Below, piece after piece: positions 4,531 through 22,021 of a DNA stretch of 41,594 nucleotides. The notes below the pieces were generated by a model that did not search any database, had not been told where the DNA came from, and saw only the letters and a program-made list of their open reading frames with translations. The stretch covers positions 1 through 41,594 of the forward strand of contig JBDRHA010000005.1 in assembly GCA_043817235.1 (NCBI GenBank), read 5' to 3'. Both the position numbers and the translations under genes were made by a program. The DNA comes from Candidatus Shapirobacteria bacterium. Lineage in GTDB: Bacteria > Patescibacteriota > Microgenomatia > UBA12405 > BS750m-G30. Every line of letters starts with the position of its first letter. The stretch's first letter is position 1.

Positions 4531-5040
4531 ATGAAGGGAAAGATTGAGCTTTACAAGCAGCTAAGTAACTTTAATGAGCCTTCTTGGCTTAAATTTTATT
4601 ATTCCTCTCTGGAAAAAAAGGGATTTTGGCTGGAAGTAATTTCTTCAGACGATGATTTTTCCGAATATGTTAGCTATGTTCTAGACAATAAAAAAAGCTT
4701 AAGGCCAGAAAGCAAATATATCAAAAATAATTTACTAAAAGGAGATTCTTGGGGAGAAATTCTAATTCTCAAGCAAAAAAATAGAATTGTGGCTAGCTTC
4801 GGTCCTAATCGGATAGAGAAAGATCAGAAAGGAAAAAAAAGAGCTAGGCCAGGCTATTTTAGCGTTCTACCTAAATTTAGGGGCCAGAAAATAGGAACAG
4901 TGCTTTGGTGGTGGGGAATGAGACGATTGGGGAAGCGCGGAGCAGAATATGTCCAGTGCTTAGTTGAGAAGAAAAACCTAGCTGCCCTGGCTATCTATCT
5001 TAATTTTGGAATGAAACCAGTAAAAAAGCTCTCAAGGTGA
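4531..5040 (+). CDS. GNAT-family acetyltransferase
   Basis: Motif A 'FSVLPKFRGQKIGTVL' and motif B 'NLAALAIYLNFGM'. Confidence 0.85.
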   Translation: MKGKIELYKQLSNFNEPSWLKFYYSSLEKKGFWLEVISSDDDFSEYVSYVLDNKKSLRPESKYIKNNLLKGDSWGEILILKQKNRIVASFGPNRIEKDQKGKKRARPGYFSVLPKFRGQKIGTVLWWWGMRRLGKRGAEYVQCLVEKKNLAALAIYLNFGMKPVKKLSR

Positions 5041-5261: not shown

Positions 5262-6328
5262 AAAACCTTTTTAAGGAAATCGAAAGAAGACGGAAGGACA
5301 AAGTTAAGATAAAAAATTTCGAGCAGGACCTAAAAGCTCAAAATATTCCAATTCAAGGAAGTTTTGAACTGACAGGCCAATGTAATTTAAATTGCTCTCA
5401 CTGTTATGCTCAAGAAGAAAGAAAAAAAGCAAACCTTTCTTTAAGAAAGGTTAAAAATATTATTGACCAGTTAGTTGAGAATGGCTGTTTATTTTTGCAA
5501 TTAACTGGAGGAGAGTGTTTAGTAAGAAAAGACTTTAAGGAAATTTATCTCTATTTAAAACAAGTGGGGATTATTCCCTCTGTTTCAACTAATGCTACTC
5601 TTTTAAATAATGATTTAATTAGGGTTTTTGAACGATATCCTCCTTACCAGATAATTGTGAGCCTTTACGGATCAACTGGCTCTGTTCATGACCAAATCAC
5701 TCGGGTTGATGGGTCTTTCCGAAAGACCTTAATTAATGTTCATAAGCTTAAAAAGGCCAGTCTTTTTGTTTGGTTTTCGGCGATAGTGATGAAAGAGAAT
5801 TTTACCCAAGTTGGGGCAATGGAAAAACTGGCTGAGCGAAATAAAATTCCTATTATTTTTTATCCCTTTTTAATTCCTAGGCTCAATAAAGATCAAAGTC
5901 CTCTGGCTCATTCTCTTAGTGATAAACGATGTGTCTGGATCCTCGGAGTGAGTAAAAAGAATAAGTCTTTTAGACAAACAAAATTACCAAAAAGAACCCC
6001 AGAAGAACTTCTATATCCTTGTAATGCTGGCTGGCACAGTTTTCATATCAATGCTGAAGGCAAAATTTATATTTGTAAAATGGAAAGAGATCTTGGTTAT
6101 TCTTTGATTAAGAATTCTTTTAAATATTCTTGGCCAAGGTTGATTAAAATCAGGAATTTAAAATTGCGTCTTCCCAAAATGTGTCTTGATTGCCAGGAGA
6201 AAAAAGAATGCCGAGTTTGTCCGCCCTTGATTAGGCTGTATCTGTCTTCGAAAACGGGGCCAGTTTTTTGTCGAAGAGTAAAATTAAAACAAAGAGCGGT
6301 TAAAAGTGAAATGCCTTCCGGCTTTTAG
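5249..6328 (+). CDS. Radical SAM enzyme with SPASM domain (RiPP maturase); N-terminal part reachable only via a -1 shift from the PqqD frame
   Basis: CxxxCxxC (CNLNCSHC, 5381-5404) lies upstream of the track's 5495 start in the same stop-free frame. Also 'LTGGE' and SPASM cysteines 'CNAG...INAEGKIYIC...CLDCQEKKECRVCP...FC'. Confidence 0.85.
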   Translation, partial: KKDIENLFKEIERRRKDKVKIKNFEQDLKAQNIPIQGSFELTGQCNLNCSHCYAQEERKKANLSLRKVKNIIDQLVENGCLFLQLTGGECLVRKDFKEIYLYLKQVGIIPSVSTNATLLNNDLIRVFERYPPYQIIVSLYGSTGSVHDQITRVDGSFRKTLINVHKLKKASLFVWFSAIVMKENFTQVGAMEKLAERNKIPIIFYPFLIPRLNKDQSPLAHSLSDKRCVWILGVSKKNKSFRQTKLPKRTPEELLYPCNAGWHSFHINAEGKIYICKMERDLGYSLIKNSFKYSWPRLIKIRNLKLRLPKMCLDCQEKKECRVCPPLIRLYLSSKTGPVFCRRVKLKQRAVKSEMPSGF

Positions 6329-6329
6329 A

Positions 6330-6502
6330 AAACTTGGTTTAGCCTGTTTAATAAAAAGTTTTTCTGCTTGTTGAGAGCTTGCTGATTGGGTAAATAAAGG
6401 CTAACTCTGATAATCGGGATGAGTTTTGTCCTGAAAAGTAAGTTAGGAAATAAAAACCAGCGTTGATAGAGCTAAAAAAGCAATGGATTTTTTCTTTTCC
6501 AT
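6330..6502 (-). pseudogene. Degenerate copy of the 5' end of the vanW-like gene
   Basis: Translates MEKKKSIAFLALSTLVFIS*LTFQDKTHPDYQS*PLFTQSASSQQAEKLF. This aligns in register with VanW 'LAYQEKIYPG...LSLTEAENLL' and contains two stops. Confidence 0.6.
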
Positions 6503-6529
6503 TAGTTAATATAATAGTATCATGGAAAA
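6480..6529. repeat. 50-bp perfect direct repeat, right copy; contains two divergent ATGs 19 bp apart and a TATAAT box
   Basis: Identical to 4192-4241. Confidence 0.95.
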
Positions 6530-7859
6530 GAAAAAGCTTATTTTGGTTATTTTCGGGATTATCTTGCTTGGCTTGTTGGCCTTCGGCGTTTATCAAATTA
6601 TTTTTAAGAAAAAAGTGCCGGTTTTGCCGAAAGGCGAAGAAGTTACGCTAACTTATTGGGGCTTATGGGAGCCGTCGCCGGTAATTAATGCGGTGATTGC
6701 TTCTTTTGAAAAAGATCATCCGGGAATTAAAGTGGATTACAAGATGCAATCTAGCCAAGATTATAAAGCGAGACTCCAAAATGCGCTTGCTTCGGGCCAG
6801 GGTCCGGATATTTTTCGCCTTCACCAAACTTGGGTGCCGATCATGCAAAAGCAACTAGCTCCGGTTCCGGACACCCTGAGCCAAACTTTAGGATTGGAAA
6901 ATAATTATTTTCCGGTGATCAGCAAAGCTATTTCCCGAAGCGGCCGCTATTATGCGCTTCCTTTGGAAATAGATACTTTGGCTCTTTACTATAATAAGGA
7001 TTTATTAGCCGTGGCCGGCGGTCAGCTGCCGCGGACTTGGTGGGGACTGCAACAGCTGGCAAAGCAAATTACTCAGAAAACCGCTGACGGCCGGATTATT
7101 ACTGCCGGGGTAGCCCTGGGAACAACGAACAATGTTGACCATTTTTCCGATATTATTGGCTTAATGCTTTTGCAAAACGACGCTGATCCGGCCGAGCCTA
7201 ATGCTCTTACTCTAGACGTTTTGCAATATTATTTACTTTTTGCCAATAAAGAGGGTGTTTGGGATAAAACCCTTCCTTCTTCCACGCTTCAGTTTGCTTC
7301 CGGCAAACTGGGTTTTTATTTTGCTCCTTCTTGGCGCTATTTTGAAATTAAAAAAGCCAACCCGGGCTTGAATTTTGGAATTGCTCCTGTGCCTCAATTG
7401 CCGGAATCTCGGGAAATTGACTGGGAGGCGGCGGAAGCCGGGGAAGGCGAACTGACTAATATTACTTGGGCTTCCTTTTGGGTGGAGGGGGTATCCGCTG
7501 TCTCTAAAAACCAAGAGGCGGCTTTTGAATTTTTAGGTTATTTGGCCTCTGCTGAAGGGCTTCGCCAGTTTTACCAAGCGGCTTCCCAAACTCGGGATTT
7601 TGGGGAAATTTATCCGCTGACCAATTTAGCTAATGAATTAACGACCATTCCCTATTTGGCTGCCTTTGTTCAACAGGCGCCAATGGCGGACTACTGGTAT
7701 TTGTGTTCGGAAACTCATGATTCTTCTTTAAATGATCTGATGATTAAGTACTATGAAGATAGCTTAAACGCTCTTTCTGGCACAGGGTCAAATGATGAAG
7801 CAGTGCTGGAAACGCTCCAATCCGGCATTTCCCAAGTCCTTTCCCAATACCAGCTTTGA
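6522..7859 (+). CDS. Membrane-anchored ABC-type sugar-binding protein (family 1 SBP)
   Basis: N-terminal TM; 'LTYWGLWE...FEKDHPGIKVDY...GQGPDIF', 'YALPL...LALYYNKDLL', 'FASGKLGF'. No adjacent permease or ATPase. Confidence 0.85.
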   Translation: MEKKKLILVIFGIILLGLLAFGVYQIIFKKKVPVLPKGEEVTLTYWGLWEPSPVINAVIASFEKDHPGIKVDYKMQSSQDYKARLQNALASGQGPDIFRLHQTWVPIMQKQLAPVPDTLSQTLGLENNYFPVISKAISRSGRYYALPLEIDTLALYYNKDLLAVAGGQLPRTWWGLQQLAKQITQKTADGRIITAGVALGTTNNVDHFSDIIGLMLLQNDADPAEPNALTLDVLQYYLLFANKEGVWDKTLPSSTLQFASGKLGFYFAPSWRYFEIKKANPGLNFGIAPVPQLPESREIDWEAAEAGEGELTNITWASFWVEGVSAVSKNQEAAFEFLGYLASAEGLRQFYQAASQTRDFGEIYPLTNLANELTTIPYLAAFVQQAPMADYWYLCSETHDSSLNDLMIKYYEDSLNALSGTGSNDEAVLETLQSGISQVLSQYQL

Positions 7860-7894
7860 GACAATAATTTCTAAATCCTAATTTTCAGAATATT

Positions 7895-8329
7895 CGAGTT
7901 TGATAAATCAAACCCCTACAAAAAAGAAAATTTATAATAATCCTTGCATTCTGTAGGGGCTTAATTTATTTTGCGAGCGGGAAAACCCCGGAGCTTGCTC
8001 CGTGGATGAAAGCTATAATCCTCGCAAAGCAAGCAAAAGAGGAAACTGCGCAAGCAAGCTGCGCAGAGGCTTCATTAAGCCCGAAAATGTCATTGCCAGA
8101 AACAACGTCATCTCGAGCGTAGCCCCGCGAGTCGCGGGGCGCAGTCGAGAGATCTTCGGAATTAAAAGATCCTTCGGCTTCGCTCAGGATGACATTGAGA
8201 ACAGATCCCCGCTTTCGCTCAGGATGACAATAGCCTTCGCAATAGCAACAGATCCCTTATTTTCCTTCCGATCGTGAAGAAAAGGAGTGAATTTCATGTT
8301 TTGTTTCAATGTATCGATACATTGAAACA
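7895..8329. repeat. Composite nested palindromic REP-like element
   Basis: Contains a GTAG-type palindrome (GGG(T/C)TTGATAAATCAAACCCCTAC), GTCAT...ATGAC units, a CGATCG palindrome, and the perfect 28-bp palindrome TGTTTCAATGTATCGATACATTGAAACA (8302-8329). Confidence 0.85.
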
Positions 8330-8361
8330 GAGGATAATTTTGTGCAATTGTCCCATTCTGC

Positions 8362-8390
8362 TTGAAGAAAAGCTATTTTAAGGCTATAAT
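8362..8390 (+). promoter_or_regulatory. Sigma70-type promoter
   Basis: TTGAAG-17bp-TATAAT. Confidence 0.7.
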
Positions 8391-8396
8391 TATCCT

Positions 8397-8856
8397 GTAA
8401 GTAGATCTAGCGCACTTTAAAAGTGATTCCCCTGTCAATTGCGGCAGGTTAAGAATCTTTTTTTCGGCCAGGCTGGAAAAAGGTTAGAGTTGAACTTTGG
8501 CTCCTTAAGCTATTTGGTAGACTAATACTTGAGCCAATAGAGAGTCGCCCAAAGCCAGAGAACTAAGAGAACGCTATGGCATTCCCGACTACAAGGACGT
8601 GTATGTCGGGCTGGACGGAGTGGTCAGAACTACTCCCGGAGAAGCCATAAGGTCGAGTCAGGCACTCGAAGGTGACTTTAGCCGTGGGGCGAGTGGGGGT
8701 TGCTCACAAGACGCTGAGCAAGCGACGGGCAAGCCCTGAGAAACGGAACCAAAACCGAATAAGTGACTAGATCTTAGGGGAAAGGGTGCTCTCGCAGGAG
8801 AGATAAAGCGTATGAGTCACTACGCAAAAGCGGTATGCTTCACCCTTTCTTTTTTT
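8397..8856 (+). ncRNA. Putative large structured RNA of unknown family (may contain a 68-codon frame, 8533-8739)
   Basis: Has its own promoter, a long-range closing stem (8403-8417 with 8761-8774), at least nine internal helices, and a terminal stem GAAAGGGTG/CACCCTTTC followed by a T-run. Confidence 0.55.
8780..8856 (+). terminator. Branched intrinsic terminator-like structure
   Basis: GAAAGGGTG (8780-8788) pairs with CACCCTTTC (8841-8849), followed by T7. Confidence 0.6.
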
Positions 8857-8896
8857 GTATTCTAAAAAATGAACTAGGGGTTAATTTAGAACAATT

Positions 8897-9904
8897 ATGG
8901 TAAAGAAACAGAATTTTAGAAAAGTGAATTTGAAAGGATCAGTCTCCGACCTGTATGAAAAAGCCTTAGTTGGCTTTTTCAGGTTATTGCCGCCTGATTT
9001 GATTCCTCGGCTGCATCATGAAATCTTTAAAGCCCCATTTTTTCAACGAACAAAAATCTGGCAAGATTGGAATCTGCCAATTAAAATAATTGAAAAGAAG
9101 TTTGTCCAGCTGACTATGGCGCGCCAGCAACTTGCCAAAAAACAAGGATATTCTTCTTTTCTTCAATTGATTTTAGAAAAACATAAAATACCCCGGAGAG
9201 ACTATGACGCTTTTATCAAAAGTATTGATCGCCAAATTCTAGTTTTTAATAAACAATTATCGAATAGCAAGCCGTTTCCTTCTTGGTATTATTCCAAATT
9301 TGGCCGGCCTTGCGCAATTTGTTTAGCCAAATCTTTTCCCTTTAATAATTTAAATGAAGTGCTGGATTCAGTGATTGAGAAAGAAAGAATTTTGAAGAAA
9401 TTTGAAAGTCAGATTAAGATTAACTTAGGGAAAAATTCAGCAGTTAATTACAAAAATAAGGCAAATATCTTTGCAATTACTATCGACAAAAATCTTAATA
9501 ACCGCCATCAGATGGCTGATTTGATTCATGAGCTTAGTCATGTCGTGGCCGCCTTAAATAGTTTTCAAAAAAAAGTTGATTATTTCCAAAAAGGAGCTTA
9601 CTGGCGGGAAAAAGAAGCGTTGAAAGTCGAAATGAGGGTCTTAAAAAAACAACAGGATATTTTCTGGCAGAATCTTATTATCGAATGCTTACTTGTTTGG
9701 CGAAGAGAATTATTTGAAATTGAACTTTACCGGGATCCTAATCAGGATTTAAGCAAACTTTATGCTCAAACTTTTAATCGTTGTTTTCCAGGGGCAAAGC
9801 AAAAAAGCAATCCTTTATATCTCTTAGACGAAAGAATTATTCTTGCGCCCTTTTCTTCCTTACCTCATGCCCTGGCTCAATTTCAGGTATTCGTATCAAG
9901 TTAA
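8897..9904 (+). CDS. M3 (oligoendopeptidase F-like) zinc metallopeptidase, short form
   Basis: M3-like segments 'RQQLAKKQGYSSF', HExxH 'LIHELSH' with downstream E ('REKEA'), and 'LFEIELYRDPNQDLSKLY'. Confidence 0.6.
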   Translation: MVKKQNFRKVNLKGSVSDLYEKALVGFFRLLPPDLIPRLHHEIFKAPFFQRTKIWQDWNLPIKIIEKKFVQLTMARQQLAKKQGYSSFLQLILEKHKIPRRDYDAFIKSIDRQILVFNKQLSNSKPFPSWYYSKFGRPCAICLAKSFPFNNLNEVLDSVIEKERILKKFESQIKINLGKNSAVNYKNKANIFAITIDKNLNNRHQMADLIHELSHVVAALNSFQKKVDYFQKGAYWREKEALKVEMRVLKKQQDIFWQNLIIECLLVWRRELFEIELYRDPNQDLSKLYAQTFNRCFPGAKQKSNPLYLLDERIILAPFSSLPHALAQFQVFVSS

Positions 9905-19616: not shown

Positions 19617-19687
19617 AGGCCTGGAGGGGATTTGCACCCCTGTGGACGGTTTTGCAGACCGCTTCCTAGCTACTCGGACACCAGGCC
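19617..19687 (-). tRNA. tRNA-Cys(GCA)
   Basis: GGCCTGG-TGTCCGAGTAGCTAGGA-AGCGGTCTGCAAAACCGT-CCAC-AGGGGTGCAAATCCCCT-CCAGGCC-T folds as a cloverleaf with anticodon GCA and U discriminator; CCA not encoded. Confidence 0.95.
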
Positions 19688-20812: not shown

Positions 20813-22021
20813 ATGCCTACACCCACTAATAAAACTTCTTCAGAAAGAGAGCCAGTGAAACAAGATTTCGTGACTGCCGATGATTATTCCCGCTCAATGC
20901 CTGACGCTCACCTGCCCACAGAATTTTCCCAAGGAATTTTAGACATGACTCCGGACGGACATGGCTTTTTGCGGCCTAATTTTATTCCTTCCAATAAAGA
21001 TATTTATATTTCTGCCTCCCAAGTTCATCGTTTTCGCTTACGCGAAGGGGATATGGTTGGCGGCCAAGTTAGATCGCCAAAAGAAAATGAACGTTATTAC
21101 GGCATTTTGAAAATTGAAAAAGTAAACGGTGAGCCGGTGGAAAAAATTCAGTCTCGTCCTTGGTTTAATGACATGACTCCGATTTTCCCCGAGCCCCAGA
21201 TAAAAATGGAAATAGGCAAAGAGCCGGTTTCGCTGCGAATGATTGACCTGGTTTCTCCGGTGGGCTTTGGCCAGCGGGGCTTGATTGTTTCCCCGCCTAA
21301 GGCCGGAAAAACCTGGCTATTAAAAGACATTGCCGCCGGGGTAGCTAAAAATTATCCCAAAATTCACCTTATGGCGGTTTTAATTGGTGAGCGGCCGGAA
21401 GAGGTAACAGATATTCGCCGCAGTGTAAAAGGAGAAGTGATTGCTTCTAATTTTGATGAACCGCCCGATTACCAAACCAGGGCGGCCGAAGTTGCTATTG
21501 AGCGGGCAAAAAGATTAGTGGAAATGGATAAAAATGTTTTTGTAATTTTGGATTCTATTACTCGGTTGGCCCGGGCTTATAACTTGGCGATTCCTACCTC
21601 CGGAAGAACTTTGTCAGGAGGGTTTGACCCGGCGGCTTTATATCCGGCCAAGCGCTTTTTTGGAGCGGCTCGGAATATTGAGAACAGAGGTTCGTTAACG
21701 ATTATTGGTACGGCCCTGGTGGATACGGGCTCTCGGATGGATGATCTAGTTTACGAGGAATTTAAAGGAACAGGAAACATGGAGCTGCATTTAGATCGCC
21801 GGCTGGCAGAAAGAAGAATTTATCCGGCAATTGATATTCAGCGCTCAGGCACCAGAAAAGAGGAATTGCTTTATGATCAAAAAACTTATCCGGCTGTGGT
21901 GCGAATGCGGCGGATGATTGACTTGCTGGGCAAAGAAGAGCGAACCGAAGCCTTTGTGGAGCAATTGGCCAAGACTAAGGATAACAAGGCTTTTTTGAAG
22001 AATTTGAATAATCAGAAATAG
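20813..22021 (+). CDS. rho: Transcription termination factor Rho
   Basis: 'GILDMTPDGHGFLR', 'GQRGLIVSPPKAGKT', 'ERPEEVTD', 'LDSITRLARAYN', 'EEFKGTGNMELHLDR'. Confidence 0.99.
   Translation: MPTPTNKTSSEREPVKQDFVTADDYSRSMPDAHLPTEFSQGILDMTPDGHGFLRPNFIPSNKDIYISASQVHRFRLREGDMVGGQVRSPKENERYYGILKIEKVNGEPVEKIQSRPWFNDMTPIFPEPQIKMEIGKEPVSLRMIDLVSPVGFGQRGLIVSPPKAGKTWLLKDIAAGVAKNYPKIHLMAVLIGERPEEVTDIRRSVKGEVIASNFDEPPDYQTRAAEVAIERAKRLVEMDKNVFVILDSITRLARAYNLAIPTSGRTLSGGFDPAALYPAKRFFGAARNIENRGSLTIIGTALVDTGSRMDDLVYEEFKGTGNMELHLDRRLAERRIYPAIDIQRSGTRKEELLYDQKTYPAVVRMRRMIDLLGKEERTEAFVEQLAKTKDNKAFLKNLNNQK

Follow-up and report, generated by a model that had tools for sequence, protein, structure and literature searches.

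Positions 8362–8856 of a 41,594-nucleotide (nt) stretch of Candidatus Shapirobacteria DNA hold a promoter, a leader, the gene of a small protein, and a conserved RNA element at the 3′ end; they are followed by the gene of a metallopeptidase-like protein with an HExxH motif (the HExxH gene). All coordinates are those of the whole stretch, called the window below, which lies on contig C5 of an 11-contig, 912,686-base genome that is 95% complete. The original prediction for this region, which is single-copy within the genome (8390–8860), was a ~460-nt, densely base-paired transcript of unknown class, either a novel large noncoding RNA (ncRNA) or a fully sequestered small-protein mRNA. We consider it likely that 8362–8856 is one transcription unit, composed of the parts listed here, and not one folded RNA.

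8362–8390, plus strand: sigma-70-type promoter, TTGAAG–17 nt–TATAAT, 10 of 12 consensus positions
8398–8532, plus strand: leader (5′ untranslated region) with local hairpins, unconserved, folding no better than shuffles
8533–8598, plus strand: N-terminal coding remnant (..SPKARELRERYGIPDYKD), similar to the N termini of P0043, P0044, P0040, L054, and L055
8599–8739, plus strand: conserved core (46 codons, GTG 8599 to TGA 8737–8739) of the small-protein gene
8751–8768, plus strand: single-stranded motif and 5′ strand of the pseudoknot, (nearly) invariant columns in 17 copies
8777–8852, plus strand: four-way junction of P1, H1, Hx, and H2
8777–8788 with 8841–8852, plus strand: P1, 12 pairs
8789–8793 with 8798–8802, plus strand: H1
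8803–8807, plus strand: linker AUAAA
8808–8812 with 8821–8825, plus strand: Hx, loop 8813–8820
8828–8831 with 8837–8840, plus strand: H2
8763–8768 with 8815–8820, plus strand: covarying pseudoknot between the bases after the motif and the middle hairpin’s loop
8850–8856, plus strand: run of seven U, directly after P1 and overlapping its 3′ arm, a terminator-like end
8897–9904, plus strand: HExxH metallopeptidase-like gene, 335 amino acids (aa), partner of the small protein

The frame 8533–8739 encodes a small protein of an unnamed family of Patescibacteria (Microgenomates group), whose members in relatives have ~50 to 80 aa. It aligns at 29 to 46% identity with five small open reading frames (ORFs) that neighbor the HExxH gene in relatives, and Y, G, A, E, R, G, G, C, and Q are invariant in this alignment; E, R, G, G, C, and Q are invariant across 26 sequences. 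The core motif is Y..G....P.EAI......E.DFSRGASGGC.QD. or, in its fuller form, Y-P-D..G.LH.TP..AI..NQR.E.DFSRGASGGC.QDP..VP, and a variable Pro-rich tail follows the conserved part. A profile search of 5.8 billion proteins with a cutoff of E ≤ 0.01 returned 44 clusters of 53 to 99 aa (E values of 6e-25 to 3e-8), all of them unnamed or “hypothetical.” Comparison of 3733 aligned codon pairs from 12 loci gave differences of 0.393, 0.352, and 0.636 at the three codon positions; conservation at the amino acid level with most change at third codon positions marks the frame as protein-coding.

The small ORF was found in 7 of 132 genomes of the order, all 7 of which also carry the HExxH gene (which has homologs in 17 of the 132), and in 11 of 401 genomes of the class, a patchy distribution. 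The two genes are syntenic: of 20 distinct small-ORF loci, 15 have the HExxH gene immediately downstream, and in several relatives the ~500-nt gap upstream of it holds a short ORF with a strong Shine-Dalgarno sequence. By eye, AGAAAGGAG lies 6 to 9 nt upstream of the small-ORF ATG in relatives. A search with a narrower small-protein alignment (A4) gave five genome loci and eight metagenome loci; two of the five genome loci were rejected as spurious Caulobacter matches to the bare motif. Neither the small protein nor the peptidase matched any Pfam, NCBIfam, or PADLOC model (PADLOC returned 0 families for six proteins of both families). As far as sequence comparison goes, the small-protein mRNA of the original prediction is supported for the family. 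Its full sequestration found no support, and the copy in the window has no canonical start, as described below. The family is so far known only from Patescibacteria, those of groundwater among them, and from unnamed environmental records.

The second conserved part of the unit is a 3′ RNA element of ~105 nt at 8751–8860 of the plus strand. It comprises the branched terminator that had been noted at the end of the region, which is indeed a branched hairpin with a seven-U tail (8777–8856), plus the preceding bases. The original prediction undervalued it: comparative evidence strongly supports a structured RNA here and in no other part of the region. Between the small ORF and the next gene, the small-ORF loci have a stem of 9 to 16 pairs, purine-rich on one side and pyrimidine-rich on the other, that encloses small hairpins. 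Six loci, the window included, share the four-way form, each with the invariant motif ahead of it, and a simpler three-way form occurs in other small-ORF loci. For the three-way form, a pseudoknot between the H1 loop (CCAG) and an upstream CUGG was considered and dropped as not established: it has only 4 to 5 pairs, and shuffled flanks match it in 3 to 38% of trials. The motif has the consensus A(C/A)AAC(U/C)GAAUAAGU(G/A), and after it comes the pseudoknot’s 5′ strand, GUGACU in the window (8763–8768). Stop codons stand in three frames of the consensus (UGA, UAA, and UGA/UAG), and the window has two of the three (TAA 8760–8762 and TGA 8764–8766).

A covariance model built from the six four-way copies with the pseudoknot excluded (R1) collected 17 copies at E ≤ 3e-05 in the loci compared. 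In the alignment of these copies, 90.4% of 405 cells are paired, compared to 67.2% in shuffles and 39.6 to 54.9% with slid partners; the alignment of helices 2–5 was fitted to the model, which inflates their pairing somewhat, while the pseudoknot is free of this bias. Changes on both sides are seen in 22 of 24 pairs. The covariation score was 0.711 against 0.269 for shuffles, and none of 500 shuffles reached any of five measures. Pairing in the pseudoknot helix is 95.6%, and two of its positions each show GC-to-AU double changes in five sequences; 14 of the 17 copies have 5 to 8 contiguous pairs. The strands, the first of which stands right after GAAUAA, change jointly across copies: GUGACU/AGUCAC in the window and elsewhere GUGAUCU/AGAUCAC, GUGACCUA/UAGGUCAC, GUGGUAA/UUACCAC, GUAGCA/UGCUAC, GUGGCAA/UUGCCAC, GUGGG/CCCAC, and GUGAG/CUCAC. 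The G-U pairs in P1 suggest an RNA of this strand.

The element has what an intrinsic terminator requires, a stable stem with a U run within 0 to 2 nt (the 12-pair P1 and UUUUUUU at 8850–8856), and a run of at least four U is present in 11 of the 17 copies. A simple terminator scan omits it because of the scan’s loop limit of 3 to 8 nt. We think that the element is most likely a terminator or attenuator.

R1 found one copy in this genome and, with strict filters, copies in 2 of the 132 genomes of the order; the three-way variant is not detected by this model. In the class sample, copies were found at 15 places in 11 of 151 genomes, with up to three per genome. A refined model (R2), run on the phylum sample, found the element in 3 of 151 genomes, all of the window’s class, and in 0 of 143 genomes outside that class. 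Thirteen of the 17 aligned copies follow an ORF of 46 to 92 aa. Among these ORFs are six members of the SRGASGGC family and one divergent relative; the other six have unrelated sequences. Of the remaining copies, one follows an uncertain 76-aa ORF, and three follow larger ORFs (a 482-aa GH26-like ORF, a 307-aa ORF, and one unnamed).

Some loci carry the element in other arrangements. One genome (G192) has three strong copies and a weak one (E of 0.011) on the same strand in a 4-kb stretch, where they alternate with short ORFs (locus L074, G192:C1:54000-70000; 6020–9640, minus strand). These ORFs are of 82, 83, and 138 to 307 aa and have no Pfam matches, the copies stand directly after an M16 (insulinase-type) peptidase gene, and the region looks like a cluster of small-ORF modules. 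In L059 (G059:C6), the element at 20969–21067 follows a Pro/Gly-rich 64-aa ORF with a strong Shine-Dalgarno sequence and precedes an 87-aa ORF that weakly matches the head domain of the ribosome-associated complex. As we read the sequences, 9 of 13 loci, which are related to one another and include the window (8740–8766), have the invariant motif in frame with the small ORF, past its stop (..CUG AAU AAG..). L056 has a second element after its peptidase gene, whose last codons are the motif itself (..Q-K-L-N-K-stop). It is possible that this in-frame placement reflects a former C terminus, read-through, or a spacing rule.

The product of the HExxH gene, whose ATG is, by eye, not preceded by a Shine-Dalgarno sequence, contains the HExxH motif and a third-ligand Glu: H211, E212, H215, and E238, as well as C139 and C142, are invariant in 26 sequences. 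The fold of the 335-aa protein predicted from 26 sequences has a pLDDT (predicted local distance difference test) of 90.4 and a pTM (predicted template modeling score) of 0.87. Foldseek placed M3B oligoendopeptidase F/Pz-peptidase structures first (2h1n and 3aho; E values of 6.6e-05 to 8e-04, TMq of 0.59 to 0.63), with 2h1n, an oligoendopeptidase F, as the best match (E of 6.6e-05, TMq of 0.63). All four matches at E ≤ 0.001 are M3B, and M2 (ACE-type) and M32 carboxypeptidases rank next. A profile search of solved structures gave a weak match to 2qr4, also an oligoendopeptidase F (E of 0.018). Since no Pfam or NCBIfam family model matches the protein, we describe this as similarity at the level of the fold and not as membership in M3.

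When the peptidase and the small protein were modeled as a complex, the score was 0.70, against 0.00 for the best of three controls; 116 of 157 solved complexes and 2 of 215 mismatched pairs reached the mark used (own alignments; the counts are rough). At least 64% of contacts are shared between runs, with a pLDDT of 59 or more for the partner. In the modeled interface, peptidase residues that include 139, 142, 199–204, 208, and 211 contact residues 35–47 of the small protein (FSRGASGGC.QD in a 54-aa query). The model thus supports binding of the small protein by the peptidase, as a prediction. Peptide-modifying enzymes of the radical SAM/SPASM type would matter if the small protein were read as the precursor of a ribosomally synthesized and posttranslationally modified peptide (RiPP). 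In that comparison, a peptidase gene adjoins, and no modification enzyme is linked across loci. A radical SAM/SPASM gene is present 2 kb away in the window (5495–6328, 277 aa), downstream of a GNAT acetyltransferase gene (4531–5040); its product matches the Radical_SAM profile from position 51 only and may be N-terminally short.

The near-consensus promoter of the original prediction was confirmed at 8362–8390, and from its sequence we infer a transcription start near 8397–8399. Promoter-like sites number four in 7800–9100, compared to a shuffle mean of 1.7. The GC content is 0.50 to 0.54 across 8400–8850 against 0.31 to 0.43 in the flanks, in agreement with what had been noted. The leader fails to align with the leaders of the closest loci (L054, L055, and L056). 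Metatranscriptome coverage, suggested earlier as a check, was partial: an RNA-library contig of another study matches 8440–8580 without any difference, with DNA carry-over possible, and the rest of 8362–8856 is uncovered. A DNA contig (X2) spans 8781–8948, where the RNA-library contigs do not extend.

The copy of the small-protein gene in the window differs from those of its relatives at the start. In the two closest loci, L054 and L055, the peptidases are 45 and 43.5% identical to that of the window, and the small proteins begin with M-A-K-P-S-P-K-A-A-E-L-A-R-R-L-G and M-T-K-N-S-L-G-G-V-S-P-K-A-V-D-L-A-R-R-F-G, respectively. The window frame reads TAG (8518) .. TGA (8530) A-N-R-E-S-P-K-A-R-E-L-R-E-R-Y-G: a TGA at 8530–8532 stands where the closest relatives have the start Met, and a second in-frame stop, TAG, lies at 8518–8520. 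No in-frame ATG, GTG, or TTG occurs between TGA 8530 and GTG 8599; ATG 8576 and TTG 8529 are both out of frame. The AAGGA ahead of GTG 8599 is poorly spaced, at a distance of only 1 nt, and a start codon with a proper ribosome-binding site is thus missing in this copy. The lost start codon is not an assembly slip, since the RNA-library contig of the other study is identical over 8440–8580. An alternative genetic code in which TGA is a sense codon was considered and rejected, as table 11 leaves the window’s long ORFs intact and the frame is closed by TAG 8518 as well. Judged by its codons, translation of the small ORF here would at best begin at GTG 8599. This codon aligns with the Met of the frequent “MYPD,” exactly where the small protein of L035 starts, and a 46-aa product with the whole core is therefore possible. 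Past TGA 8737, the frame stays open up to ..PKPNK-stop, similar to the C-terminal tails of the family. The peptidase, too, is short at its N terminus, where it is missing ~70 residues found in relatives of 398 to 445 aa, or in 25 of 26 homologs of 385 to 445 aa; these homologs exclude the query, P0045, and include two others that are short, P0065 (321 aa) and P0071 (241 aa).

The small-protein/peptidase pair thus looks damaged in this genome, having lost the start of the small ORF and the N terminus of the peptidase. The locus could accordingly be a decaying remnant from which no small protein and no working peptidase are made, and in which promoter and 3′ element are left over. We regard this as a serious possibility whose chances fall somewhat short of even. 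It is favored by the two in-frame stops at the position of the relatives’ N terminus together with the out-of-frame ATG 8576, by the tail-like frame after TGA 8737, by the ~70 absent codons of the peptidase, and by the independent confirmation of the letters. However, both the core of 46 codons and the peptidase frame of 335 codons are intact and retain every invariant residue; some members start at the equivalent Met, as in L035; other short homologs exist (L019 and P0065); the promoter is near consensus; and the 3′ element scores 86 bits, as high as the other seed copies. The possibility of decay concerns this copy only and is compatible with the reading of the family as small-protein transcription units.

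We propose that the parts of such a unit work together as follows. The 3′ element would end or attenuate transcription and would also stabilize the small-protein mRNA by giving it a nuclease-resistant 3′ end. This would set a stoichiometry in which the small protein is made in excess over the product of the next gene, probably a compact zinc metallopeptidase of oligopeptidase fold. According to the complex model, the peptidase may hold the FSRGASGGC.QD stretch in or near its active-site cleft, either as a substrate to be cleaved or as an inhibitor. The stop codons in three frames of the motif may serve to keep ribosomes out of the fold. The likelihood given at the outset applies to this explanation as a whole, in which coding homology, synteny, the covarying pseudoknotted RNA, and the predicted fold and binding are observed, and termination, mRNA stabilization, stoichiometry, and cleavage or inhibition are inferred.

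A number of observations weigh against it, besides the fitting of the helix alignment mentioned above. The absence of an in-frame start before GTG 8599 and the poor spacing of AAGGA mean that the peptide is perhaps not made here, and the peptidase gene is N-terminally short. Six of the 17 copies of the element have no clear U run, ending instead in C/U-rich tails with U runs of 2 to 3, and loops of 50 to 60 nt inside a terminator stem are unusual. The role of the element is not tied to this peptidase, as copies also stand after unrelated small ORFs and after three larger ones; in four of the six four-way copies after a family small ORF, no HExxH gene was detected downstream. The coding part folds somewhat better than shuffles (z of −2.41; see below) and could thus contain lineage-specific mRNA structure. 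Finally, the RNA-library run, the sole RNA cover of the region, gave contigs only at 8200–8267 and 8440–8580, and these are possibly DNA-derived.

A more far-reaching version, which we put forward tentatively, is that the ~105-nt element is not just an ornate terminator but represents a new class of functional 3′-end RNA of Microgenomates, either a nuclease-blocking knot or a pseudoknot switch, and that the small protein is a dedicated substrate or inhibitor of a minimal oligopeptidase. As a nuclease-blocking knot, the element would set the lifetime of small-protein messages. As a switch, its pseudoknot would be opened by a ribosome or a factor, gating the expression of the next gene. As an inhibitor, the small protein might act like a cysteine switch toward a previously unrecognized minimal oligopeptidase.

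Alternatively, the element could be a sensor, that is, a riboswitch or a protein-binding attenuator in which the state of the pseudoknot decides on read-through, and not a constitutive terminator. The invariant 13-nt single-stranded motif and the conserved junction linkers (such as AUAAA), for which a plain terminator has no need, would fit this idea, as would the covarying pseudoknot, the fact that downstream genes mostly have no Shine-Dalgarno sequence by eye, and the leader of this copy, which offers an alternative partner for the pseudoknot strand. Still, P1 with its 10 to 16 pairs is stable alone, and no conserved alternative anti-terminator pairing was seen. Nor do the genes downstream suggest a common ligand: they have no relation to each other, and the function of most of them is unknown. 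Overall, we consider a sensor unlikely.

The reading of 8398–8856 as a novel large structured ncRNA, closed by a duplex of 8403–8417 with 8761–8774 and with an incidental open frame, is very improbable. Folding of 8395–8860 does exceed that of shuffles (z of −3.04; none of 100 shuffles folds as well), but the reverse strand folds as well as the forward strand (z of −3.35). By part, the plus strand gave a z of −0.46 for the leader (8398–8575; 65 of 200 shuffles fold as well), −2.41 for 8576–8775 (4 of 200), −2.68 for 8398–8775, and −3.80 for the hairpin at 8776–8858 (ΔG of −30.4; 0 of 200). The 3′ hairpin contributes most to the folding excess, which also comes from the coding part and the long-range closure. 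The z-score comparison, which had been proposed as a check, is hence positive for the whole region and the hairpin, while the leader and the reverse strand speak against a single RNA fold.

The complementary segments listed in the original prediction do occur in minimum-energy folds, as does its closing stem, but those in the coding core are not kept: the 37 predicted pairs within the aligned core are formed at 6/32 to 18/37 positions in 11 homologs, the same range as with columns slid by 1 to 3. Covariation, another proposed check, was thus found in the 3′ element and not in the coding-core helices. The closing duplex has a ΔG of −19.8 and a z of −2.17 here; it is not above shuffles in eight of nine relatives, the sole exception being L066 (z of −2.03), and its 3′ strand is the conserved pseudoknot strand. 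A blastn search of 8390–8860 against 60 relatives gave no match. In favor of a large ncRNA there remain, besides the z scores of the whole region and of the closing duplex, the elevated GC content and the conserved frame without a canonical start codon in this copy. Against it, the frame is kept as a protein in 44 clusters. The large-ncRNA reading fails because of this coding homology, the excess of change at third codon positions, the unkept helices, and a closing duplex above shuffles in only one of nine relatives, and we regard it as largely refuted. A single compact 460-nt fold is not supported, though its pieces are real.

Known RNA families do not account for the region either, in line with what had been noted. 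With the 4227 models of Rfam 15 at gathering thresholds, the sole match in the window is a tRNA at 19617–19687. Within 8200–9000, nothing was better than an E of 0.94, with nothing at all in 8490–8878 in a search to E 10, and the 14 loci bearing the 3′ element gave no Rfam match at E ≤ 0.1. RNase P was rejected as an identity for the region, since the RNase P RNA is found elsewhere in the genome (contig C11, 127 bits). A transfer-messenger RNA (tmRNA) was rejected as well: ARAGORN finds none in the window or genome, a genome search with RF00023 gave only subthreshold, tRNA-sized matches, none of them on C5, and the 3′ element is without an acceptor or T arm. As a separate observation, neither ARAGORN nor RF00023 finds a tmRNA gene anywhere in this 95%-complete genome.

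That the 3′ element acts as DNA, as a recombination site of gene cassettes like integron attC, would explain the tandem small-ORF modules of G192 described above and the position of the element at the 3′ end of ORFs unrelated in sequence, but is scarcely credible given that the G-U pairs of P1 are mismatches on the other strand, the pseudoknot covaries, the U run exists on one strand only, no recombinase is found among the neighboring genes scanned, and no attC-like core sites are seen at the ends by eye, with no systematic search for them.

Several repeats and motifs lie around the unit. A perfect 28-nt palindrome is located at 8302–8329, ~35 nt upstream of the promoter, with copies at 92 to 93% identity in at least five other places of the genome (C11, C6, and C3); it could be the operator of a global regulator or a bidirectional terminator. 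REP-like dispersed repeats at 8095–8262 have at least 46 partial copies on C5, C6, C7, and C11, and a 91-aa ORF without a family match (8002–8277) sits within them. They lie outside the element, which is, as originally stated, not the local REP repeat. The RNA-library contig at 8200–8267 may derive from any copy of the repeat. Before the small ORF, L054 (1390–1490), L055 (1375–1455), and L056 (1385–1490) share a leader motif that is absent from the leader of the window: a GC-rich hairpin, then a hairpin with loop AGGUCAA, then GGG. The stem of the AGGUCAA hairpin varies (UUUG/CAAA, UCUG/UAGA, and CCUG/CAGG), and the motif may be a second, separate RNA motif.

Overall, the evidence does not support a new class of 460-nt ncRNA; it leaves a small-protein transcription unit with a 3′ motif absent from Rfam 15. 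An apparent giant ncRNA turned out to be an ordinary mRNA body, and well-folding, GC-rich DNA that looks intergenic can in this way hide small unannotated genes in small, AT-rich genomes. Three things are left without a name in Rfam, Pfam, NCBIfam, or PADLOC: the small-protein family, the accompanying family of compact HExxH peptidases with an oligopeptidase fold, its predicted binding partner, and the pseudoknotted four-way-junction RNA that closes many small-ORF units in the window’s class. In a full-text literature search, the titles and abstract openings of the papers returned held no description of such an RNA element or protein family. Patescibacteria are uncultivated episymbionts with few characterized regulatory RNAs. 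If our explanation is true, a lineage-specific 3′-end device on small secreted-looking or regulatory peptides would give a handle on gene expression and peptide biology in this group.

Among known systems, large bacterial ncRNAs of Rfam, such as OLE, GOLLD, ROOL, HEARO, and raiA (Rfam was searched as a whole), and RNase P, tmRNA, and 6S RNA, resemble the region in their size range, in being GC-rich in an AT-rich genome, and in having their own promoter. The region is unlike them in that the Rfam search of 8200–9000, taken to E 10, assigned it to no family and in that the body of its transcript is coding. M3B, M2, and M32 peptidases share with the HExxH protein the HExxH motif, the downstream Glu, and the predicted fold. 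They have 490 to 610 aa, whereas the proteins described here have ~400 aa (335 in the window) and are 10 to 13% identical to them, carry two invariant Cys (C139 and C142), and match no family model. Intrinsic terminators likewise have a G+C-containing stem at the gene end with a U run directly after it (12 pairs and seven U here). Their loops are of 3 to 8 nt, whereas the stem of the 3′ element closes a four-way junction of ~50 to 60 nt, is accompanied by an invariant upstream motif and a covarying pseudoknot, and in 6 of 17 copies is not followed by a clear U run.

In flavivirus xrRNAs, a multihelix junction is combined with pairing of the 5′ flank with an internal loop. The likeness of the 3′ element to them is one of topology only: it has no relation to them in sequence or family (Rfam was negative), is bacterial, and has four helices and a U run. 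In precursor-peptide operons, such as that of the lantibiotic genes nisA-nisB, a hairpin after the small gene passes part of the transcripts on to the processing genes. The present locus differs from these operons, showing no modification enzymes, transporter, or leader-cleavage logic and a single oligopeptidase-like partner, and its RNA element also follows unrelated small ORFs. It shares with them the order of parts: a small ORF, with a strong Shine-Dalgarno sequence in relatives, then a structured terminator, and then the gene of an enzyme.

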